A stretch of 64,000 bases of DNA from positions 6,147 to 70,146 of the forward strand of contig JAAZOM010000021.1 in assembly GCA_012797775.1 (NCBI GenBank), given 5' to 3'. This DNA comes from Candidatus Kuenenbacteria bacterium. GTDB lineage: Bacteria; Patescibacteriota; Patescibacteriia; UBA2196; GWA2-42-15. The position numbers were made by a program, and so were the translations under genes. The notes below the pieces were generated by a model. It searched no databases. It was not told where the DNA came from and saw only the letters and a list, made by a program, of their open reading frames with translations. Positions 12,389 to 40,570 of this stretch are shown one piece after another. Within the stretch, counting starts at the first letter, position 1. Each line of letters begins with the position of its first letter.

Positions 12389-12469
12389 GCCACTATAGCT
12401 CAATGGTAGAGCGCTGTGCCTGTACACATGGCTCGGAGGTTTCCGGTTCAAGTCCGGGTAGTGGCACCA
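12389..12469 (+). tRNA. tRNA-like gene with canonical acceptor, D and T arms and an encoded CCA, but a non-canonical anticodon arm; identity unassigned
   Basis: Acceptor GCCACTA/TAGTGGC + A + CCA. D-arm TAGCTCAATGGTAGAGC. T-arm TCCGG-TTCAAGT-CCGGG. Between them are 23 nt instead of 17: a 7-bp stem with one U-U mismatch and a 9-nt loop TGTACACAT. Confidence 0.55.
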
Positions 12470-26273: not shown

Positions 26274-26353
26274 ATATAAATATTATCCTCTCCAAAAATA
26301 AAAAGCAACAAACGCCGGCTTGAGATTCCAAGCCGGGTTTGTTTTATTAATAA

Positions 26354-26752
26354 TTATCTTGAATAGCGCCCAGAACCCTGACCCTTGCCTTGGCCATAGC
26401 CAGACCCAGCTTTTTGTCCACCAGCCCTTAAGCCCAATTCTTGTCTTATTTTGTTGGCCTCCTCACGTTTTCCCTGCATAGCCAAATCGTGGGCTTCAGT
26501 AAATTTGGCAAAGTTTTCTTGGTTGACAACCTGGTTTACTCGCCCACCCTTGCCGGCCATCAATTCTTTCCAGGCGGAATAATCTCTGTTTTGAAAGGCA
26601 CTGGTCATCAAGACGTGTCTTTCTTCTGAATAATTTGGCCCTTTTTGAGTATAATCTCCCTGATAGGCCAAAACCTGACTCGCGCCCAGAGCCCCGAACA
26701 AGACCGCGAATCCGAGGAACGAAGGCATTAATATTTTTTTATTAATTTTCAT
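26354..26752 (-). CDS. Secreted hypothetical protein with Gly-rich C-terminus
   Basis: Signal peptide. Charged helical middle. C-terminal GSGYGQGKGQGSG. Confidence 0.5.
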   Translation of the reverse strand: MKINKKILMPSFLGFAVLFGALGASQVLAYQGDYTQKGPNYSEERHVLMTSAFQNRDYSAWKELMAGKGGRVNQVVNQENFAKFTEAHDLAMQGKREEANKIRQELGLRAGGQKAGSGYGQGKGQGSGRYSR

Positions 26753-26854
26753 ATATTTATATTATTTAGCTAATATATATTCTAATAATTAACGACCTTT
26801 CACTATTAATACAACTCAAAGGCGTCTTTTCTTTCATTTTTATATTTTATTCAT

Positions 26855-26900
26855 AAATTAAAAATCCACCAGCATAAAGTTGATGAGTTTTTTAATTCTC
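26855..26900. repeat. Direct repeat copy 1 (46 bp): AAATTAAAAATCCACCAGCATAAAGTTGATGAGTTTTTTAATTCTC
   Basis: Near-identical to 33876..33922; the only difference is one extra A in the A-run. Confidence 0.85.
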
Positions 26901-27077
26901 CCAACCTCGGTCTAGTACTACCAGATTGGGGTCTTTTGGGGGTTCTTTGGGCGACTTGTACTGTGGTAAACAACGGGAACGGGTCGAGGTCTTTATATTA
27001 AAATTTTAACACAAATGGGACAAATGGGACAGTATAAAAAAGAGTGTCTAATTTAATATAATTCAAACAATAAAAAA

Positions 27078-27658
27078 TCACTTCTTCTCGCTGGCTTTTA
27101 AAAACAGCGAGGCCGATATTATAAACAATGTGGCGAAAAATCCGCTAAGGACAAATACTCCGGGAACGCTGGGCGACCATGAGATAACGCTGGGGGGCCA
27201 AATAAAAAACGCAATCACAGGAACCAACATTTGAGCGAACGCTGTTATATACAACGCAATCGCCATTCCTTTCGGATTTAAGCGAGCGATAGAAACGCCG
27301 CTAACGCCAATTAACAAGACTCCGCCATACAACAGATTAGCTGGGTTGTCTTCATTTCCGATAATACCAACAGCCCCGTTTATCCAAATAAGAAGCAAAG
27401 CTGTCGCTATTGCCACGCCCACGCCTGCTTTATAGGAAATATATCGCTGGATCTTCTTGAAATCAATTCGTAAGCAATGCCCGAGCCAAATAAGAAAACA
27501 CCGACCATAATAAAATCGCCTAAGCTCCAATCCCAGCCACCGCCTTGACCTCCGTTAATAGTCGCGTTTGGGTTTATCAAAGTTAATACCAAAGGTATCA
27601 AAAGTATAAGTCCCGTTCCGATCGCAAAATAAATTATTCTTTTGTTTTTCTTCTCCAT
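27078..27658 (-). pseudogene. Membrane protein gene split by a frameshift (ORFs 27407..27658 and 27078..27530 overlap by 124 nt in different frames)
   Basis: The upstream 83-aa ORF and the downstream 150-aa ORF are both TM-helix rich. The first ~35 codons of the downstream ORF (MELRRFYYGRCFLIW...) look non-native, so one gene is probably disrupted near 27430-27470. Confidence 0.4.
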
Positions 27659-27858
27659 ATCTTTTTTCTAATTATCAATTTCCAAAAGCCGATTAAAGTT
27701 ATTAAAAGTCCGATCCCTTGAGCGCCGGGGCTGTCGTCATATCCGCCGAATATGATTATAGAAACGCCTAATATTAACACGGGCAAAAATAAAAGCATTC
27801 TTCGCCATTTATGATCTTTTTCCTCTTGGTCTGATTGTATTTTTATTTCGTTCTTCAT
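27634..27858 (-). CDS. Small membrane protein (74 aa)
   Basis: A single TM hairpin. It is tightly packed between neighbouring genes. Confidence 0.4.
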   Translation of the reverse strand: MKNEIKIQSDQEEKDHKWRRMLLFLPVLILGVSIIIFGGYDDSPGAQGIGLLITLIGFWKLIIRKKIWRRKTKE

Positions 27859-27862
27859 AAAT

Positions 27863-29224
27863 TTATTCAGTAGTCATTCTAATCTCACCACATTTATCTT
27901 TATACTCGTTTATAATATCAAAAATATCATCTATTACAGGTTCTTGGGCTGTTATTTCTCTACCATCTTTAAAAACAGCTGTTACTTCTAAAGCATGGGT
28001 TTGCATAATAGATGCTATTTCACAATTTGCAATAGCCTGTTTTATCAAATTCCAATTAGAAATATTAGTAAAAGCGTATTCTTCGGCTTTTGCAATTAAA
28101 TCTTCTACATCATGTTCTAATATTTTTTGCTGAACATCATCTGGAAATATTCTTTTAATATCTTTTGAATAATTAGACCCATCCCCTGGAGCTTCGTAAG
28201 AAAATTTATTCAAATCATAATATGATAATTCATTTGGATAATCTATTTTAGCCGGGCCAGACGAACCGCTTACTGTTTTTAATTCATTGTCTTCAATCAC
28301 ATATTCCCCACAATAAGCCCAAATGTATAATGGAAATAATTCTTGATCAGGTTTTAGGTTTTTAATCGTACAAAAACTATGACTGTCCTCCCTGTTTTTC
28401 CAGCTGAAATGTTTTTCAGTCAAAAGATAATTAGATATCGCTTTTTCAATTTTGTCATTGCTAAAATTATTTTCTATTAAATTTTTATCAATCTCATATC
28501 CGTAAGTCAGCCAAACTCTATCCTCTTCACCACCCAAACAACTTAAATGGATATCAGCTTGATGTTTGTCATTTTCCAGCCTAACTATAGTATTGCCCAT
28601 CGCCCCTCCCTGTATATCAGACGCAAACTCCAAAGTTAGTTCATTATTCTCGCCGTCTAATGACCGCAAAATTCCATACTTAAGATCATACTCAACTACC
28701 TTGAGCGGATCATGTCGCCAAGTCACCAAGCCTTCTTGATAAAGTGAGTGATAAACATTTAACAATTCACGACGTTCAGCCGGAGTTGATATTTTTTTTA
28801 CCAAATTATAGCTAGCCAGCTCTTCTATTTTAATTTGTGATATCTTATCGCCGAAATTATCAACCCTAATCGGAAAATAAATTAACAAAAATACTACAAG
28901 TATGGACAATATTACATTTTTAAATCCGATTCCCCCGGTTTTTTTATCATGCCGGTAATAGACCCATAAAAAAATTGATATTACCAAAAAGAAAAGCGTA
29001 AAATACAAAAGTGGGAAAAAGAAAAACCACGAATAATTATTTTCAAAATTTTCTAGAAAAATACTGCCAAAATTATTGTGAAATATGTTGCCAGACCGAC
29101 CGCCACCCATCCACAAATCAGGGATGGAAATAAAAGTTGAAAATAAAAGCAACGTTCCCCCAACCAGCGCTACACTAAAAAATCGGGACAAATATTCACT
29201 GATAATTACTAAAACATTTTTCAT
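27863..29224 (-). CDS. Hypothetical membrane-anchored protein (453 aa)
   Basis: N-terminal TM helices and a large extracytoplasmic domain. Low-GC codon usage. Confidence 0.5.
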   Translation of the reverse strand: MKNVLVIISEYLSRFFSVALVGGTLLLFSTFISIPDLWMGGGRSGNIFHNNFGSIFLENFENNYSWFFFFPLLYFTLFFLVISIFLWVYYRHDKKTGGIGFKNVILSILVVFLLIYFPIRVDNFGDKISQIKIEELASYNLVKKISTPAERRELLNVYHSLYQEGLVTWRHDPLKVVEYDLKYGILRSLDGENNELTLEFASDIQGGAMGNTIVRLENDKHQADIHLSCLGGEEDRVWLTYGYEIDKNLIENNFSNDKIEKAISNYLLTEKHFSWKNREDSHSFCTIKNLKPDQELFPLYIWAYCGEYVIEDNELKTVSGSSGPAKIDYPNELSYYDLNKFSYEAPGDGSNYSKDIKRIFPDDVQQKILEHDVEDLIAKAEEYAFTNISNWNLIKQAIANCEIASIMQTHALEVTAVFKDGREITAQEPVIDDIFDIINEYKDKCGEIRMTTE

Positions 29225-29247
29225 AAATATATTTTTAAAATTTATAA

Positions 29248-30678
29248 TTAATCATAATAATTCACGATGCCAGAATTTTTGCCTGACACAACTTCCATAT
29301 TGCCTGTAACATATACATTTAATCTGCTCGTATTTATCGCGTTAATTGTCGCTTGCTCCGTTGTAAATTTATCCATTTCAATCCAGCAATCACCTGAATT
29401 TATTATTAAATTTTTAGCTGAACCAGTCAGATTGATTATACCACCTTCAGCTTCTAATTTTAACGTATTAGCAACTTCTATATTACCTTTTATATTATTA
29501 AATCTATGAGTAAGTTTTATTTCCAAATTATTAATTTCCAAATCTTCTAATATAATATTAGCGGCTTCATTCTCTATTTTTTCAATATCGGGCATTGTTA
29601 TTTCTATTGTTAAACGCTTAGTGCCGGCTGCAAATGGTATTTTATCATTCTCCATCGTCCAAGTATTGGTATTATAATATGTCTCCAATTCCGATCTTTT
29701 GATATTTAAAGTATCGCCGACTTTGGCAAATTCTAATCCAATCTGGTCATACTCGCTGCCTATGACTTTAATATCAAAATATTCACCTTGCTTAATTATT
29801 ATGTCGTCAAACTTAACGTAGCGTGAAATATAAATACTATCAAAATCTTTAATATCAATACTGACTTCTTGCATTTTTTCTTTGAACTCAGTCTTTTTAT
29901 TTTGAAATTCAGTATTCAGGTGACAAGACTGCAAGATAAAAATTCCCAAACATAATATGAATAATAAAATTAATTTTAAAAATAATTTTAAATTAAAAAT
30001 ATTTTTCTTACTGGAAAACAGCATTAATCCCAATATTCCTACAAAAAACAATGGTATTGTAATAATGGCCAGCAAGGATAAAAGCGATAAATAATAGTTA
30101 AAAAATCCAACAACGTCTATTATCCTAAAATCAACCATTACGTGCTGAAGCCAAGAACATGAGGGATTAAAAAATAAAATCAAAAATATAATTACAGATG
30201 TCAATATTCCCAACGACCCCACGCCCAAAAATATTCCTCCAAATATTTTTCTCAAAGTTATGGTTATTTTTGAATTTGGATATTTCTTAAATTGCTCCGA
30301 TATGCCTCTGATAACCAAACCAATCAACCCGCCAGCCAGACTTAAAACAACAAAAGGGAAAAACATATCTAAAAACATATAGAAGTCAAAAGGTGGTTTG
30401 TACAAATACAAATGACGTGAATATTCAACAAAATAAGCGACCAAGACAATAGCTATATTGTTAACCAAAGTGCCAATAAAAAGAATCGGCAAAAATTCAT
30501 AACTTCTATTTTTATTTTGTAGCAATATAAACAAAATACCACTAACAAGTGGTATGAGTAGATATATAAGAATTACGGGGATGTAACCAAATACCATACC
30601 ATCCAAACTGCGTGGCGATAACATAATAAGCAAGTTGATAATTACAGTGCCAATAAAAATAAAGGATATTTTTTTCAT
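29248..30678 (-). CDS. Polytopic membrane protein with C-terminal beta-rich (DUF4097/adhesin-like) domain
   Basis: About 8 TM helices. The C-terminal repetitive region (NLEIKLTHRFNNIKGNIEVANTLKLEAEGGIINLTGSAKNLII) resembles DUF4097; the match is weak. Confidence 0.5.
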   Translation of the reverse strand: MKKISFIFIGTVIINLLIMLSPRSLDGMVFGYIPVILIYLLIPLVSGILFILLQNKNRSYEFLPILFIGTLVNNIAIVLVAYFVEYSRHLYLYKPPFDFYMFLDMFFPFVVLSLAGGLIGLVIRGISEQFKKYPNSKITITLRKIFGGIFLGVGSLGILTSVIIFLILFFNPSCSWLQHVMVDFRIIDVVGFFNYYLSLLSLLAIITIPLFFVGILGLMLFSSKKNIFNLKLFLKLILLFILCLGIFILQSCHLNTEFQNKKTEFKEKMQEVSIDIKDFDSIYISRYVKFDDIIIKQGEYFDIKVIGSEYDQIGLEFAKVGDTLNIKRSELETYYNTNTWTMENDKIPFAAGTKRLTIEITMPDIEKIENEAANIILEDLEINNLEIKLTHRFNNIKGNIEVANTLKLEAEGGIINLTGSAKNLIINSGDCWIEMDKFTTEQATINAINTSRLNVYVTGNMEVVSGKNSGIVNYYD

Positions 30679-30690
30679 AATATATTTAAA

Positions 30691-31572
30691 TTACCAATAA
30701 ATCACATTTTCATTATCTGACCAAAAAACATTTTCATATCTGTTTTTAGATAGCCTGTTGTTTTGTTTAATAATTTCGCCTTTTTCTGGGTCAAAAATAA
30801 ATAAAGTCCAATATTCGTTTACTGTATCATAATCAACTGATTTAATCTTTGCTTCAATCGCTATCCGACTACTATCAGGAGAAAAAACCACATGGTTAAA
30901 ATCAAGCAATTTCATTTCTTTAAAATGAGTAATAAAATACCCATCATTTATAAAAGATAAATTAATCAGTCTTAAGCTTAAGTTCTGATTGTTGCAACTG
31001 TGATCTATTTCCATAACAGGTGGATTTTTATCACACTCACTTTCTAGAAAAACAACCTTTCTACCATCTTGCGATTTAGCAACTAATTTACCTTTAGTCG
31101 GTAATTCTACAGTTTTTCTGGTTTTAAAATTTAAATAATAATTAGTAAATGGACCATTATATAATTTACTATCTTGAGGCCATTGCCAAGCCGAACCAAT
31201 TAAAGTGTCTTTTGTTAAAGGTGTAAGTATTGGATCTATATAATTAGTATAAAAACCCAAGGAATATTTAATCTCTCCATTTTTCGTGATTCTAGTCCGA
31301 CCAACACCAAAATCAGCATCTTCTCCTATATGATTAAAAGAAAACATACCTTCATATTTATCAATATTGAAAATAGACGGCTCATTTAAACTTAAAATTT
31401 GTCCTGATAAATTGTTGATTTCATTATCAATATCATCAAGCTTATTTTGAGTATGACAATTGAAATACGGGGGTTGTGTCAAACAAGCATCACCGCGTTT
31501 AAACCAATAAATAAAAATAGCAACTATTGCTAATATTATTAGCGCTAAAACAATACAAATTTTTCTTTTCAT
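30691..31572 (-). CDS. Hypothetical membrane-anchored protein (293 aa), possibly beta-propeller-like
   Basis: N-terminal TM helix. Motifs such as VVFSPDSSRIAIEA. Confidence 0.5.
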   Translation of the reverse strand: MKRKICIVLALIILAIVAIFIYWFKRGDACLTQPPYFNCHTQNKLDDIDNEINNLSGQILSLNEPSIFNIDKYEGMFSFNHIGEDADFGVGRTRITKNGEIKYSLGFYTNYIDPILTPLTKDTLIGSAWQWPQDSKLYNGPFTNYYLNFKTRKTVELPTKGKLVAKSQDGRKVVFLESECDKNPPVMEIDHSCNNQNLSLRLINLSFINDGYFITHFKEMKLLDFNHVVFSPDSSRIAIEAKIKSVDYDTVNEYWTLFIFDPEKGEIIKQNNRLSKNRYENVFWSDNENVIYW

Positions 31573-31694
31573 GTTGTTTATTATACCTTATTTAAGAAAA
31601 AAAAACACCTGTTAAAACAGGTGTTTTTAAAATTCATTGGCCCAGAAGGGATTACTTTCGGCTTTGGATGGTTAATAATGATTAATAGTTTTGC

Positions 31695-33197
31695 CTATTG
31701 AACCTGTCTTAAGCTACTACCATCCCATTCAATCACTGGTTCATCACCATATTTCGCCTTTATTTCTACTGAATGATTTTGCCAAGTTCCATATTCAATG
31801 GTCTTGTTTTTTGGCCCCTCAAAAGGAGCTATGGCAAAATAAACCGTTATTCTATAACTATCGGCTAGCATTTCCGCTGATTGACTATTCTTTTTTAGAT
31901 CAGATGGACGGAAACCATGTTTGAAGCTTTCTCCCTGACCATAGACTTTCCCCATTGTATAGATGCCGCCGACATCTCTATCCTCGGCCGGATTAGCCGC
32001 CAGATCATCCCAACAAGTTGGATTAAAACAAACATCCATCATATAAGATTCTCCGCTGACATTCACAATTTTAAAAATCTGATTAGAATTAATATCAGAA
32101 TTAGTTTTTGGAGTTTCCGTGCTAACTTCTTCTTTTAGAACTTCTGTTGGCTTTACTTCTTGCTTGATTTCTTCTTTAATTTCTTCTTCAATTTGTTTCA
32201 TTATTTCCTCAACTTTTTCTCCGCTTTTAACGATATTATTTTCTTTCATCCACTCAGGCACTTCCTCCTCAGTCAACCCAGCCACACTAGCTTTAGTTTC
32301 ACCCTTTTCATCAGTTTTAATGCTAATTCCCAATATTTTTTCGTCTTGAATGGCTGATCTGATTTGATCGGCAGCAAAATAGCCAGCACTAACTTTTTCC
32401 ATCGCCTTTGACATATTTCCCGGCAAATTGGCAATTGTCAAAATACTAGCTGCTGGTTCAGTCACTGCTCTCGCCTTATTTACCATTTCCGATACCTTAT
32501 TTTTATCTCCCAGAGCTATTCTGGCTTCATCATCCGCCACCTCCAAAACCAAATCCGCACCGCCTACCACTGTCGCTGTCGTTGCCAAAACCCCAGTAGC
32601 ACCTCCGGTCAGCACTACCCCTCCCACAAACACCGTCACCTTGGCTCCGTTTTTAATTCTCATTGAATTTTGTTCGCAAGTTTCAAAGACATCTCCTTCC
32701 TCCCCATAAGCCTCTCGGGTAATTTGATCTTGAGTTTGGTTCAAAATTAAGTGAGCCATTTTGACATCAACTCCCAGGTGTTTAGCCAGGGTTCTTACAG
32801 TTTTACCAGCTGGAGCACTTTCAATTACTTTTTGAATTTCAACTGAAGTATAAGCAGAAGCACCTTTTACTAAATTAAATGCTGTTTTTTTATTAGCCAT
32901 TTTGTCAGCTTCTTTTTCTAACTCCGCTACTTCGCCTTCCAGCGCTTTCCACCCATCAATAACAGCACTCATTTCAGTATTCCATTTATCATAATCTCCG
33001 TACTCTTTGGCTTTTTCTAAAACATTTTCAGTCCGATATCTAAGTAGAGTATATTCTTTTGAAACGGATAGGGTTTTTCTATAAACCGTCTGGTCTAAAG
33101 TTGGAGTTTTGTCTCCTTTTTTTAAGGCCAAAAAACCGACGACCATGACTATTATTACAGTAACAATTGCGATTGGCAAGATTTTTTTTATCGACAT
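31695..33197 (-). CDS. Hypothetical membrane-anchored protein (500 aa) with acidic EEIK repeat linker
   Basis: N-terminal TM helix, a Gly/Thr/Ala-rich segment and EEIKEEIKQEVKPTEV repeats. Confidence 0.5.
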   Translation of the reverse strand: MSIKKILPIAIVTVIIVMVVGFLALKKGDKTPTLDQTVYRKTLSVSKEYTLLRYRTENVLEKAKEYGDYDKWNTEMSAVIDGWKALEGEVAELEKEADKMANKKTAFNLVKGASAYTSVEIQKVIESAPAGKTVRTLAKHLGVDVKMAHLILNQTQDQITREAYGEEGDVFETCEQNSMRIKNGAKVTVFVGGVVLTGGATGVLATTATVVGGADLVLEVADDEARIALGDKNKVSEMVNKARAVTEPAASILTIANLPGNMSKAMEKVSAGYFAADQIRSAIQDEKILGISIKTDEKGETKASVAGLTEEEVPEWMKENNIVKSGEKVEEIMKQIEEEIKEEIKQEVKPTEVLKEEVSTETPKTNSDINSNQIFKIVNVSGESYMMDVCFNPTCWDDLAANPAEDRDVGGIYTMGKVYGQGESFKHGFRPSDLKKNSQSAEMLADSYRITVYFAIAPFEGPKNKTIEYGTWQNHSVEIKAKYGDEPVIEWDGSSLRQVQ

Positions 33198-33281
33198 AGG
33201 CTATTTTATTAAAAATTAATAAGACATATTTATCCCTATAAAAATAGAAAAGTTCTGACAAAAATAAATATTAATATTTAT

Positions 33282-33779
33282 TTAATCGACAATATAGTTT
33301 CTTTCAGCTTTGAAAGTTTCGATTAGGTTTTCTTGAAAATCTTTGATTAACACCGTTACCTCGACTCTAAGTTTACCCACTTTTTCAATAAATGTAGAAG
33401 TAAAAGCACATGTATTATCTCCACCAGCACTCAACACTGTCCGAACTGTCTGTTCTTTATAAAGCACTTCTTCATTGTTTTCGTTAAGGTAAAATCTCCA
33501 TTCACAAAAACCAAATTTTCCGTATTCATCCTCAAAATTATCAATCTTAGCCGACCACATTCGAGCTTGTCTGGCTTGGAACATTTCTTCCTTTGGGCTA
33601 ATGATTATTACCTTAATTGGTTTTTTCTCTTTTTCTTCAACAGGGGCAATTTCGGCACTTTTCTCGCTAATGTTTATTTCTTGTTTTGTCGTTTGTTTTG
33701 GTTGTTTTAATTTAATAAACACTGTTCCCGAAATTATTAAAATTAACAAGACAAGGATTATCCATCTATTATTTTTCAT
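33282..33779 (-). CDS. Hypothetical membrane-anchored protein (165 aa)
   Basis: N-terminal TM helix. It is the first gene of the minus-strand block that ends at 27078. Confidence 0.5.
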   Translation of the reverse strand: MKNNRWIILVLLILIISGTVFIKLKQPKQTTKQEINISEKSAEIAPVEEKEKKPIKVIIISPKEEMFQARQARMWSAKIDNFEDEYGKFGFCEWRFYLNENNEEVLYKEQTVRTVLSAGGDNTCAFTSTFIEKVGKLRVEVTVLIKDFQENLIETFKAERNYIVD

Positions 33780-33875
33780 TTTTTCATAATTTAATTATAA
33801 ATTTGGCTATTTTTTAATTGTTTTCCTAGCCCAATACATGTTTGCCCAGCGCCAATATTATTATGAGTTTACTTA

Positions 33876-33922
33876 AAAATTAAAAAATCCACCAGCATAA
33901 AGTTGATGAGTTTTTTAATTCT
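33876..33922. repeat. Direct repeat copy 2 (47 bp), overlapping the last 3 nt of tRNA-Asn
   Basis: Same sequence as 26855..26900 with one extra A. It ends with the CTC that is complementary to the tRNA 3' end. Confidence 0.85.
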
Positions 33923-33992
33923 CGGGGACAGGGATTCGAACCCTGGACCCATTGGTTAACAGCCAATTGCTCTACCGCTGAGCTATCCCCGA
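33920..33992 (-). tRNA. tRNA-Asn (anticodon GTT)
   Basis: Cloverleaf: acceptor TCGGGGA/TCCCCGA, D-arm GCTC-AGCGGTA-GAGC, anticodon stem ATTGG/CCAAT with loop CTGTTAA, T-arm CAGGG-TTCGAAT-CCCTG. No CCA is encoded. Confidence 0.9.
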
Positions 33993-34237
33993 ATAAAACC
34001 TTTTATAAATTGTCTGCCTCGATAACTTTTTAATTCTTTCTCCCTTTTTAATGCCTCTTCCCTGCTCGCAACATGCTCTAAGCAGATAGCAACCCATTCA
34101 CCATCAAACCTAGCGGTATATCCCTTGGAAAAAATTTTATTGTTATGCAAAGCTAAACGTTCTTCTAAATTTTTAGTCTGCCCTATATAAATTTTATTAT
34201 GTTTTTTATTATAAACACAATAAACTATAAATTCCAT
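33983..34237 (-). CDS. Small GIY-YIG nuclease family protein (YhbQ/Slx1-like URI domain)
   Basis: IVYCVYNKKHNKIYIGQTKNLEERLALHN carries the GIY...YIG...R...E...N motifs. The last 3 codons and the stop overlap the tRNA-Asn acceptor stem. Confidence 0.8.
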   Translation of the reverse strand: MEFIVYCVYNKKHNKIYIGQTKNLEERLALHNNKIFSKGYTARFDGEWVAICLEHVASREEALKREKELKSYRGRQFIKGFIRG

Positions 34238-34243
34238 ATAATT

Positions 34244-34284
34244 ATTGCTCTACCTCCGCCAGCTGGCGGAGAGCTATCCCCGAA
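34244..34284 (-). repeat. Partial duplicate of the tRNA-Asn 5' region (acceptor + D-arm + position 26-28) with a 16-bp perfect palindrome TCCGCCAGCTGGCGGA replacing D-loop nucleotides
   Basis: The minus strand reads TTCGGGGATAGCTC-[TCCGCCAGCTGGCGGA]-GGTAGAGCAAT, against the genuine TTCGGGGATAGCTCAGCGGTAGAGCAAT. It lies 6 nt upstream of the GIY-YIG ATG. Confidence 0.7.
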
Positions 34285-34297
34285 TGTGATTCAAAAT

Positions 34298-35629
34298 TTA
34301 ATAGTCTTTCAACTTTTTCATGTCCAAATGCTGTTGAATTTTCTCCAAAGCCTTGGTCTCAATCTGGCGAATACGTTCGCGGGTCACACCAAATTCTTGA
34401 CCGACTTCCTCTAGGGTGTGGGCGACACCATCAACTAGACCAAAACGCATTTCTAAAATTTTTCTCTCCCTGGGCGTTAATTCTTCAATAATACTTTTAA
34501 CATGTTCAGCCAAAAGCCGCAAGGAGGCGGCCTTTGATGGGCTCATAGTCTTGGTATCTTCAATAAAATCAGAAAGCTTGGCATCGTCGTCACCATCATC
34601 ACCGACCGAAGTTTCGAGAGAGACAGTATCTTGGGAAATCTGCATGATATGATTAATCTTTTCAATTTCTTCTCCCATTTCGGCGGCGATTTCCTCGGCT
34701 AGGGGCTCACGGCCAAGATCTTGGATCAGGCGGCGTTGAACCTGTTGAAATTTATTAATTGTTTCTACCATGTGGACGGGGATGCGGATAGTACGAGATT
34801 GGTCAGCAAGCGCCCGGGTGATAGCTTGACGGATCCACCAGGTAGCATAAGTAGAGAATTTATAACCCTTGCGATAATCAAATTTTTCTACGGCCCGGAA
34901 TAGACCGATATTGCCTTCTTGAATCAAATCTAATAAAGTCAGGCCGCCACGACCGACAAATTTTTTAGCAATAGAAACAACCAGACGCAGGTTGGATTGA
35001 ATCAGCTTCCTTTCCGCTTCTTTGTCCCCTTTTTCCTTGCGCTTGGCCAACTGCATCTCTTCTTCGGTATGGAGCAATGGCGCTTTGCCGATCTCGCGCA
35101 GATACATCTGAATAGAATCTGAGGAAATATCGGTGAGATCCACTTTTTTCTTGTCTGATTTGATACCGATTTCGTCCAAAATTTCCTTGCGGACTTTTTC
35201 TGTGGCCAAAAAACCAATCTCTTTTTCAATAATATTAACACTCAGGTGATCGAGACGATAAAGTACTTCTTCGGCCTGATCTAAATATTCCTCCATTTCC
35301 GGCAGGGCATAGAGAACTTCTGATTCAGTGACAAAACCGCGCAGCTTCCCCTTTTTTATAAGCGAATCTACTGCCTCTTGGGGAAATTCCACCTTAGGGC
35401 TCATTGCCTTGATTACTTTTTTTACTTTGGCTTTGGGACGAATAATCTTGCCTTTCTTTTTTGATTTGGGGTGGAAAAACTTCTTTTTCAATCTGGGCTT
35501 GAATATTTTTTTTGCTTTATCTTTTTTCTTCATTTTTGGGCTATAATTTTTTTTATTTTTTAACTTAAAATGGGAAGGATGATTTTTCCTCGTTTTTTTC
35601 TTTCTGCTGTTTTTTGGGGGGCGAGCCAT
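34298..35629 (-). CDS. rpoD: RNA polymerase primary sigma factor (sigma-70) with Lys-rich N-terminal extension
   Basis: Regions 2-4 are conserved ([54 protein letters not shown]). The first ~75 residues are K/R-rich. Confidence 0.9.
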
Positions 35630-39652: not shown

Positions 39653-40570
39653 TTAATAAATTTTCCAATTTTTACGGTCAGAAATAATTATTCTTTCTTT
39701 TTGGTTGTTATAATATCCCTTGGCAGTAACCTCAATGCCGATTGGCATAAAAATATCACCGGCAATGCTCGGGTTTAATTCATAAATAACCGCGTTATTG
39801 GTTTCATCGTTGATAATACGTATGCGCGGAGCCAAAAATTGACTGCCGCTGATAATGTCAAGGTTCCGATGAGAAGAGGCGGGGAGGGTGCCAGGATCTG
39901 AGGGTATGTGTTTTGTATAAATTGGGGCATCTTGTTCTACCCCACCACCCTCATTTTTGTGCAAAACAATTATTCTACCTTCTTTTTGTGCTGGCCAGTC
40001 GATATCAATTGAATCTGGATAAAAAACTAGCCCAGTTGGCACACTAACTCCAAAATCAATCTCAAAAGAACGGCCCGGCTGTAATCTAACCTTTAGGGGG
40101 TTATTTTTGACAATGTCGGAATTTAGTGTCTCGGTATAGATACAATTTTTATTTCCGCCCTTACTAGAATCAGTAACATCGGCCACAGAACCATATGTAA
40201 AAACAGAGGTTATGTTGGAGTTGTCAAAACATATGACACTGCCTAATTTTTTTATGGGCTTTAGATAGCTTTTCCAAGAAATAATATTATTATCGAGAAA
40301 ACCACTAGCGGGGGTGCCTTCGGTACCGAGCTCGCTCCCATCACGCTCTTTTTCAATTTTATATATAGCTTTTTCCATGGCACTTTCAGCTGCGAAATAA
40401 GCACTCTCTGATTCACCTATGGCTCGGCTGGTCTTGCCAATCCTCAAGATGACATCCGCAACAATAAAAGTAATCATGAGTAAATTGGCCAGAATCAAAA
40501 CGGTTAAAACAAGGGCGATACCCCCTTGATTTGATAGTAATTTATTTAATATTGGTTTCTTATTATTCAT
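39653..40570 (-). CDS. PilX-like minor pilin / pilus assembly protein (PilX N-terminal domain)
   Basis: SNQGGIALVLTVLILANLLMITFIVA matches the PilX N-terminal pattern. The start was moved to the internal MNNKK so that it does not overlap the upstream gene. Confidence 0.5.
   Translation of the reverse strand: MNNKKPILNKLLSNQGGIALVLTVLILANLLMITFIVADVILRIGKTSRAIGESESAYFAAESAMEKAIYKIEKERDGSELGTEGTPASGFLDNNIISWKSYLKPIKKLGSVICFDNSNITSVFTYGSVADVTDSSKGGNKNCIYTETLNSDIVKNNPLKVRLQPGRSFEIDFGVSVPTGLVFYPDSIDIDWPAQKEGRIIVLHKNEGGGVEQDAPIYTKHIPSDPGTLPASSHRNLDIISGSQFLAPRIRIINDETNNAVIYELNPSIAGDIFMPIGIEVTAKGYYNNQKERIIISDRKNWKIY

Follow-up and report, generated by a model that had tools for sequence, protein, structure and literature searches.

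What is a gene for a very small nuclease doing between an intact tRNA gene and a broken copy of that same gene, and what ties it to the palindrome that the broken copy contains? The question is raised by a stretch of 64,000 nucleotides (nt) of Candidatus Kuenenbacteria bacterium (contig JAAZOM010000021.1), called the window below, in which a GIY-YIG nuclease of 84 amino acids (aa) is encoded directly upstream of, and reads into, the gene for tRNA-Asn. An earlier note on this DNA had seen there a mobile cassette inserted into or next to the tRNA gene with duplication of its target. We find that the cassette is site-specific, preserves an intact tRNA, is absent from relatives and forms tandem arrays, and that each of two nuclease families pairs with a palindrome of its own. 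From sequence and from analogy, we lean modestly toward the view that the cassette would be a selfish element made of a nuclease and its own hairpin, lodged in the 5' part of tRNA-Asn, possibly domesticated in part, and acting on the hairpin formed by its palindrome.

The elements of the locus follow each other on the minus strand. The stop codon of the upstream gene (34298-34300) and a 12-nt spacer precede a pseudo-5'-tRNA made of two parts. Part A, ATTCGGGGATAGCTC (34271..34285), consists of nt 1-13 of tRNA-Asn and of the 2 nt preceding the tRNA; it covers the 5' strand of the acceptor stem, U8, A9, and the 5' strand of the D-stem. Part B, GGTAGAGCAAT (34244..34254), is an exact copy of nt 18-28. 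Between the two, a perfect 16-nt palindrome, TCCGCCAGCTGGCGGA (34255..34270), named pal1 hereafter, takes the place of D-loop nt 14-16 (AGC); with one further base on each side (C and G, 34254-34271), it becomes a perfect palindrome of 18 bp, CTCCGCCAGCTGGCGGAG. Because pal1 replaces nt 14-16, the upstream tRNA copy is dead. A 6-nt linker, AATTAT (34238..34243), then leads to the ATG at 34237 of the open reading frame (ORF) for the single-domain GIY-YIG nuclease (33983..34237), whose family we call GIY1. Finally comes the intact tRNA-Asn(GTT), bounded at 33993-33920 by ARAGORN and at 33992-33921 by Rfam (full length, 72.9 bits). The ORF has no stop codon of its own. Its 3' end reads ATT CGG GGA TAG, where the stop is U8-A9-G10 of the tRNA, and 10 nt (33983-33992) are common to the ORF and the tRNA. 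The earlier note had the layout and the positions of the elements right in every material point. Its statement that the last three codons and the stop are encoded in the acceptor stem holds for the overlap as such, the third-last codon (ATT) giving only its last base to the tRNA. In summary of this layout, the block inserted in the D-loop of the tRNA gene comprises pal1, tRNA nt 18-28, the linker, the ORF, and tRNA nt 1-17; nt 1 to about 28 of the tRNA are duplicated and the downstream copy is a complete tRNA.

Is this arrangement peculiar to the window? A metagenome-assembled genome of Candidatus Kuenenbacteria encodes the identical protein, labelled "GIY-YIG nuclease family protein", and the protein has hundreds of relatives of about 83 aa that are 57-71% identical, all source-named ones coming from Patescibacteria or unclassified bacteria. 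Many of these proteins end in IPL, IPR, IPG or SPVAQW, which are translated tRNA 5' ends. A scan of 185,579 species genomes (one genome per species) gave 318 stretches encoding homologues, a lower bound since the scan was limited by its search patterns, and 80 of them were fetched (single loci and contigs are designated below by L numbers). The homologue is located at tRNA-Asn at all 80 loci, all of them from Patescibacteria. A tRNA, always tRNA-Asn(GTT), is recognized by ARAGORN at or just past the end of the ORF at 69 loci. The remaining 11 also run on with tRNA-Asn-type 5' sequence, mostly that of a tRNA-Asn interrupted after anticodon position 35; of the others, L054 leads to another palindrome-bearing partial copy, L048 is cut by a run of N, and L068 is cut by the end of the contig. 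Counted per ORF copy, 81 of 84 lead straight into a tRNA-type 5' end. The ORF stop lies within the tRNA at about 60 loci, namely at nt 8-10 (37 loci), at the TAG of GGTAGAGC (8 loci) or at the anticodon-loop TAA (15 loci). Units made of part A, the palindrome, part B, and the ORF are arranged in tandem at L011, L048, L075, and L032, and remnants of such units are also found.

The partial tRNA copy could have been a chance resemblance, absent at other GIY-YIG insertions, as the earlier note had itself considered. In the window, the 15-mer of part A and the 11-mer of part B each have exactly two occurrences, one within the intact tRNA and the other within the partial copy; the chance expectation for an exact 15-mer is about 1e-4 in 128 kb (both strands). 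At the homologous loci, the 200 nt upstream of the ORF were searched for pieces of 9 nt or more identical to the local tRNA. Among the 70 loci that could be scored in this way, 66 have a partial copy, and a control region three times longer gave matches in 9 loci. Chance similarity is therefore ruled out. Typically, the partial copy consists of tRNA nt 1-13 followed, 29 nt later, by nt 17/18 onward, with the 16-mer pal1 between the two pieces; the palindrome is present at most 130 nt upstream of 76 of the 85 ORF copies. Of about 51 copies at the canonical place, 44 have a part A that agrees 13/13 with the local tRNA, although the tRNAs have 20 different acceptor strands, and L006, L066, and L071 have in their upstream copy a different but valid tRNA-like acceptor, as a transfer between lineages would lead one to expect. 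Part B stops anywhere from nt 25 to nt 38, depending on the locus, and at no fewer than 18 loci it reaches 4-12 nt into the lineage-specific anticodon stem.

In the palindrome itself, variation is confined to the four central bases (AGCT 50, AGCC 7, AACT 4, GGCT 4, AGTT 3, GGTT 1); outside the centre, compensatory changes of the arms are seen at two loci only, L064 and L065. In the tRNA copies, pal1 always replaces exactly three bases, even where four D-loop bases precede G18 (L020, L029, L039, L060). The same holds for six loci where it occupies another position and replaces AGC at nt 9-11 (L014, L038, L068), GGT at nt 5-7 (L031, L052) or AAT at nt 26-28 (L023). At eight loci, one palindrome is nested within another, for example TCCGCC TCCGCC AGT TGGCGGA TGGCGGA. 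From these nested copies and alternative positions, it follows that pal1 behaves as an insertion.

The locus also exists without the cassette. In the window, the neighbour upstream of the cassette is rpoD, encoding sigma-70 (34298..35629, minus strand, from the ORF list). Homologues of this RpoD are 84-90% identical by BLASTP (with the sigma-70 Pfam domains) and about 84% by tblastn; the relatives have the order murB-maf-dnaG-rpoD in common, and the order dnaG-rpoD-tRNA-Asn is conserved. In the contigs of three of these relatives, L138-L140 (RpoD 84-88% identical by BLASTP, 84% by tblastn), rpoD is followed by an AT-rich spacer of about 170 nt and by an intact tRNA-Asn, and the junction has no ORF, no partial copy, and no pal1. 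The cassette being present in the window and missing in L138-L140, it is polymorphic for presence and absence at a conserved locus, and the insertion of a mobile cassette with duplication, as first proposed, is supported. The same junction differs in L136 and L137, which are among the closest relatives of the organism of the window: there (L136, 5290-5465), two tandem degenerate pseudo-tRNA-Asn units of about 100 nt, ATTCGGGGATAGCC CACGG...CTGTAAACCAGTGGGTTCATTCC, have neither palindrome nor ORF, and are followed by a tRNA-Asn split by an intron with an HNH-type ORF. L141 has a similar intron. In many Patescibacteria, a split after anticodon position 35 (CTGT|...) interrupts the tRNA-Asn gene. 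Rfam identifies a group I intron in tRNA-Asn of L014 (3261-3511), L028 (3293-3568), and L036 (3632-3876); the inserts of L136 (from about 5500) and L141 (from about 1880), which carry a 107-aa HNH-type ORF with a CANCH motif, are below the Rfam threshold. The GIY-YIG cassette and an intron can coexist in one tRNA gene. Thus, tRNA-Asn is a hotspot for selfish DNA in the lineage of the window.

Does the palindrome belong to the nuclease or to the tRNA? An answer comes from a sister family, GIY2, first met at L032 (2590-2950). Upstream of the first ORF, this locus has a second one, also of 84 aa, about 31% identical to the first, which likewise terminates, with IIPR, in a tRNA-like 5' end; the partial tRNA copy in front of it holds a different palindrome. 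GIY2 has 331 homologues at E <= 1e-5, in Patescibacteria and Bacteroidota. Its palindrome, pal2, CCTGCCTGCCGG(T/C)AGGCAGG (CCTGCC..GGCAGG), sits between A21 and G22 in five independent loci of Patescibacteria, where the local tRNA is either tRNA-Asn (L032, L262, L264) or tRNA-Phe (L263, L268; about 1430-1500 in L262, L263, L264, and L268), and the flanking pieces match the local tRNA each time. In a Bacteroidia locus at tRNA-Arg, L266 (1330-1400 and 1760-1810), the arms of pal2 surround a 21-nt centre, both in the partial copy and in a full-length copy; in Flavobacteriales, partial copies of tRNA-Arg contain other GC-rich hairpins (L267, L271). The idea that the duplicated tRNA piece derives from the target is thereby strengthened, as the piece found with GIY2 matches the local tRNA, be it Asn, Phe or Arg. 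The palindromes follow the proteins: pal1 accompanies 76/85 GIY1 ORFs vs. 0/8 GIY2 ORFs, and pal2 1/85 vs. 5/8. That the palindrome and the place of its insertion in the D-loop are particular to each nuclease lineage, whatever the tRNA, argues that protein and palindrome belong together.

Such a pairing has a precedent. Ssn nucleases consist of one GIY-YIG domain and have about 94 aa (cd10448); they bind the NTS/SRM hairpin repeat only as single-stranded DNA (ssDNA) and cut just upstream of the repeat. The cognate repeat flanks their genes and can number up to hundreds of copies (Chenal et al., 2025, Nat Commun; PMC11893778). Judged by its published description, the Ssn family appears to be the closest known system (PMC11893778). 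The likeness lies in a single GIY-YIG domain of about 85-95 aa with no accessory or DNA-binding domain (84 aa in GIY1), in a GC-rich hairpin-forming repeat that adjoins the gene and is also dispersed elsewhere, and in the pairing of different nuclease lineages with different hairpins. Unlike ssn genes, the GIY1 gene is bound to a single tRNA gene, into which it reads, and follows a duplicate of the tRNA 5' part that hosts the hairpin. In addition, pal1 is shorter (16 nt), perfectly symmetric, and devoid of an oriented SRM flank of the GTCAT type; the hairpin is found only 5' of the gene, its 3' side being the tRNA, and the best fold matches of GIY1 are UPF0213 and Slx1. tRNA is mentioned 0 times in the Ssn paper (PMC11893778). 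By layout and description, what we find can be likened to an Ssn-like pair of nuclease and hairpin combined with a homing-like residence in a tRNA gene. The suggestion that the palindrome is a recognition site gains indirect support, as either nuclease family has a palindrome of its own and the Ssn nucleases offer a precedent (PMC11893778).

The palindrome is not a private feature of the cassette, since pal1 turns out to be a dispersed 16-nt element of insertion-like character. In about 420 kb of fetched flanks (80 loci), seven copies lie more than 150 nt from the gene vs. about 0.3 expected. Exact matches were found in at least 120 metagenome contigs, nearly all of 30-48% G+C, and none of these copies is in the canonical cassette context. 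Direct repeats of 2-11 nt border 34 of 109 distinct low-GC copies vs. 10.4 in a re-pairing control; for repeats of at least 3 nt, the numbers are 16 and 3.8 (for example L253 6050, L156 1154, L221 4650, L261 4421). These repeats have the signature of insertion with a short target duplication and suggest a transposition-like insertion of the 16-mer. Palindrome-bearing partial tRNA copies also exist with no GIY-YIG ORF, in L164 (about 70, Met), L255 (about 807, Ile), L223 (about 1081, Asn), and L196 (about 12537, Asn), with an intact tRNA downstream at 3 nt in L196 and at about 40-50 nt in L164, L255, and L223; they may be decayed cassettes or independent hits of the palindrome.

Two further ideas about these copies were set aside. 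Pal1 does not usually cap longer hairpins, only about 9% of copies having at least 3 bp of outward complementarity. Nor is it a removable insert in an otherwise intact tRNA, as its deletion, or its replacement by 1-4 nt, restored no ARAGORN tRNA among 124 metagenome copies. In viral contigs, 55 copies of pal1 were found, mostly in high-GC coding sequence, where they are probably due to chance. Some low-GC IMG/VR contigs (L083/L109/L112, L086, L092, L127/L135) have the palindrome at the tip of longer inverted repeats, and no nuclease gene was found in them. In L217 (2184-2241), the palindrome occurs twice, in frame, within a repetitive coding stretch (...NPPAGGEEPK...), so that it can be tolerated within genes.

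With so many copies at large, pal1 might have no functional link with the nuclease: it would be an independent selfish mini-palindrome, similar to repetitive extragenic palindromes (REP) or GC clusters, gathering in a dispensable pseudo-tRNA beside an unrelated GIY-YIG gene. Its abundance outside the cassette, its presence in partial copies of other tRNAs with no GIY-YIG gene nearby, and the repeated insertion visible in nested and displaced copies are all in line with this explanation. We nevertheless find it very improbable, for pal1 is nearly universal in the cassette and at the same position, and GIY2 has a different palindrome at a different fixed position, with two tRNAs in the candidate phyla radiation and a long version in one Bacteroidia locus. 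Besides, the Ssn nucleases show that such pairs are functional (PMC11893778).

What kind of nuclease does the cassette encode? Residues 3-71 match the Pfam GIY-YIG family PF01541 (E 1.2e-15, 58 bits, cut-off 22.6). All 32 homologues compared share Y6, Y17, R27, and E66, and at least 90% of them share H31; these catalytic residues align with the N-terminal motifs of I-TevI, and the similarity in sequence to Slx1 and UPF0213 proteins is marginal (E 0.07-0.3). An AlphaFold2 model (mean predicted local distance difference test 94.1) displays one compact domain. Its top Foldseek matches are all GIY-YIG domains, with UPF0213 BH0048 (1zg2, E 1.6e-4), Slx1 (template modelling score 0.6-0.69), and At-HIGLE, and I-TevI ranks only 23rd. 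In a profile search, 568 of 1.84 billion cluster representatives reached E <= 1e-10 and 7266 reached E <= 1e-3, and the listed ones nearly all have 60-140 aa; tblastn of the GIY1 protein against plasmids gave no match. As modelled, GIY1 is a bare catalytic domain of the minimal Slx1/UPF0213-like type rather than a modular homing endonuclease, and the framing of the cassette as a classical homing endonuclease gene does not fit a protein with no DNA-binding domain. Slx1 is a structure-specific nuclease for branched DNA. A specificity of this kind would fit a hairpin substrate and, together with the structural matches, brings GIY1 close to the Slx1/UPF0213 (YhbQ-type) proteins, unlike which it has a genomic context linked to a tRNA and a palindrome, none being reported for them. 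In a survey of the superfamily in 2006, standalone Slx1-like domains of prokaryotes were already regarded as the minimal form of the fold, and a fusion of GIY-YIG with a TrmH-type methyltransferase domain acting on tRNA G18, in the D-loop, was described (PMC1564403). The bearing of the latter on a cassette that resides in a tRNA D-loop is suggestive, no more.

Classical double-strand homing deserves consideration all the same. The nuclease would cut the duplex D-loop of an empty tRNA-Asn gene, repair would copy the cassette, and pal1 would be an immunizing insertion to which the enzyme does not bind. A free-standing GIY-YIG homing endonuclease, SegB, acts in the tRNA gene region of phage T4. 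As in I-TevI and SegB, the GIY-YIG core has the same Tyr/Tyr/Arg/His/Glu residues, the element is site-specific, it is present or absent at a conserved gene, and the host gene stays functional. The fixed position of the palindrome in the D-loop in each family, nt 14-16 for GIY1 and 21|22 for GIY2, points in the same direction, and the replacement of exactly 3 nt fits a staggered cut. However, in contrast with I-TevI and Seg proteins, GIY1 has no C-terminal DNA-binding domain and no intron, the host gene is saved by duplication of its 5' part instead of splicing, and a constant palindrome belongs to the unit. Moreover, the upstream copy is disrupted by pal1, yet a complete tRNA with an intact D-loop remains and, as a putative target, would stay cleavable, so that a simple immunity through disruption of the target would fail. 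A mere spacer would neither keep one 16-mer across ORFs that are about 60% identical nor differ systematically by family, and copies of pal1 bordered by direct repeats lie far from any tRNA. We therefore regard homing of this type as unlikely.

For the selfish pair of nuclease and hairpin that we favour, the following course of events may be proposed. The ORF would be expressed within the 5' leader of a single-copy essential tRNA, riding on the transcription of the latter. Cleavage by RNase P would remove the stop codon and leave a non-stop messenger RNA, so that expression of the ORF would be kept low. During replication or DNA uptake, the nuclease would bind pal1 folded as an ssDNA hairpin and cut beside it, in the tRNA-derived flank; binding and cutting of this kind are suggested by the family-specific pairing of nucleases and palindromes and by the Ssn precedent. 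The break would promote recombination through the tRNA-derived repeats, by which the cassette could spread to tRNA-Asn genes that lack it, the conserved tRNA serving as homology arm, and which could also produce arrays and precise losses. Solo copies of pal1 would be non-autonomous derivatives acted on in trans.

Another explanation is a non-mobile operon serving the host. The nuclease would be domesticated, either for ssDNA restriction in the manner of SsnA or for hairpin processing, and the partial copy with its palindrome would be a 5' untranslated region, an operator or an RNA hairpin that stabilizes or regulates the transcript. Patescibacteria are thought to be naturally competent, which counts for such a role. 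Further, the protein is well conserved with its catalytic residues intact, the leader made of part A, pal1, and part B is predicted to fold as a D-stem plus palindrome hairpin (-19.8 kcal/mol, z = -2.3), and 4/6 single-base variants of the arms would, in our own reading, still allow G-U pairs on the sense strand. The SsnA of Neisseria, a modulator of transformation, is believed to have been domesticated; SsnA does not, however, act on RNA (PMC11893778). The distribution of the cassette is, on the other hand, patchy (absent in three contigs of close relatives, at least 318 stretches in the 185,579 species genomes), tandem arrays and decayed copies occur, and the sister family is at different tRNAs. 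In addition, it is the sequence of pal1 that is conserved and not just its pairing, with compensatory variants at L064 and L065 only. Overall, a non-mobile operon of this kind seems quite improbable to us.

Several observations weigh against a selfish nuclease acting on its own hairpin. The intact tRNA keeps an uninterrupted D-loop, which, if this is the target, would expose it to self-cleavage. Pal1 has a single copy in the window, even with 3 mismatches allowed, and only two weak GIY-like ORF matches were found in 1.2 Mb of pal1-bearing viral and metagenome contigs, which is compatible with one nuclease gene per genome and proves nothing. By eye, on both strands, pal1 does not fit the SRM motif HGTCWY..YYVSBRH..WNVSBRG..RNCYNB: its flanks, TAGCTC and GGTAGAGC, have no GTC box, and its arm TCCGCCA misses one YYVSBRH position. 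The Bacteroidia locus L266 has its intact tRNA ahead of the ORF, and the copy with the palindrome comes after the ORF. A scan of 33800-34450 brought up no consensus of a promoter or terminator near the cassette; at other loci, -10-like boxes upstream of part A were noticed by eye only and are unquantified. The cassette copy of pal1 replaces 3 nt, whereas dispersed copies tend toward flanking duplications. Finally, three insert-free contigs cannot tell gain from loss.

Part of these difficulties would be removed by a bolder proposal. Pal1 and pal2 may be non-autonomous mobile hairpins of 16-20 nt, inserted in trans by the tRNA-embedded GIY-YIG protein, which would act as a minimal hairpin "transposase". 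If the ends of a break staggered by about 3 nt were filled in, short duplications would arise, as around dispersed copies; if they were trimmed, the outcome would be the 3-nt replacement of the tRNA copies, so that both observations would be accounted for. Nuclease and mini-palindrome would then form an unrecognized class of mobile elements that remodels tRNA genes, through pseudo-5'-halves and arrays, across Patescibacteria and Bacteroidota. We hold this to be possible, though doubtful. The cassette may be compared with REP sequences with their associated transposases (RAYT) and with the mobile GC clusters of yeast mitochondria, which are short GC-rich palindromes in an AT-rich genome. Scattered short GC-rich palindromes, nested or tandem copies, and short flanking duplications are common to all of these, and, as in REP/RAYT systems, a single-copy nuclease gene adjoins one copy of the palindrome. 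The enzyme is, however, of the GIY-YIG type and not an HUH/Y1 transposase, pal1 has only 16 nt, and the gene is tied to a tRNA.

Hairpin-specific single-domain GIY-YIG nucleases were characterized only in 2025, and their biology outside Neisseria is open; the cassette would extend a system of the Ssn kind to Patescibacteria and Bacteroidota. In the literature, we found no description of a GIY-YIG gene wedged in tRNA-Asn or of the 16-mer, and no tRNA-linked GIY-YIG genes described in Patescibacteria or Bacteroidota. The strategy as a whole, with a nuclease gene that sits in the leader of a single-copy essential tRNA, borrows a stop-like triplet from it, and would borrow its transcription, and with the tRNA kept alive through duplication of its 5' part, was found described nowhere. 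It would account for the pseudo-tRNA fragments and palindromes that recur near the tRNA genes of these genomes, for assemblies that break at tRNA-Asn, and for the many unannotated mini-ORFs of the "GIY-YIG nuclease family". The natural pairs of enzyme and site, GIY1/pal1 and GIY2/pal2, are candidates as sequence-specific ssDNA tools, and the way in which a constant 16-mer gets inserted into DNA becomes testable.

Some observations concern the surroundings of the tRNA. Among the 80 fetched contigs, 10 end 41-148 nt past the nuclease ORF, and 7 of these near the 3' end of the tRNA (contig ends after the nuclease ORF include L006, L013, L015, L031, L065, L067, and L068). Breaks of this kind at tRNA-Asn may reflect strain-level heterogeneity between insert and empty site, or repeats that break the assembly. 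Downstream of tRNA-Asn in the window (26350-33900), seven ORFs of 29-40% G+C lie on the same strand, with no Pfam match except for one DUF2807 adhesin-like domain, and they share no similarity with the genes that follow the tRNA in relatives. Integrase-borne islands and prophages at tRNA genes measure kilobases, encode a tyrosine integrase, and duplicate the tRNA at its 3' end. The cassette resembles them in being inserted in a tRNA gene with a partial duplication and survival of the tRNA; it differs from them in duplicating the 5' end, in its size of about 300 bp, and in having no recombinase. As the window has no att-like repeat of the tRNA 3' part, the seven downstream ORFs have no recombinase domain, and the downstream DNA has no homology to that of relatives, an island integrated at the tRNA 3' end is rejected. 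The link first drawn between the cassette and a low-GC island does not hold: with no tRNA 3'-end repeat and no integrase, the downstream DNA is merely non-syntenic with relatives, a variable region for which no link to the cassette was found.

As for the rest of the window, an Rfam scan of 33000-35000 gave nothing but the tRNA above threshold, the remainder being sub-threshold noise, and no second GIY-YIG gene is found elsewhere in the window. GGTAGA-like strings at 39931-39979, considered as possibly related to tRNA, are ordinary sequence with no such relationship. Right after a tRNA-Met, at 12389-12469 on the plus strand, ARAGORN reports an 81-nt "tRNA-Cys (aca)" and Rfam confirms a tRNA (12389-12466); its length and the odd anticodon call point to a tRNA with a long variable arm, mis-assigned by ARAGORN.

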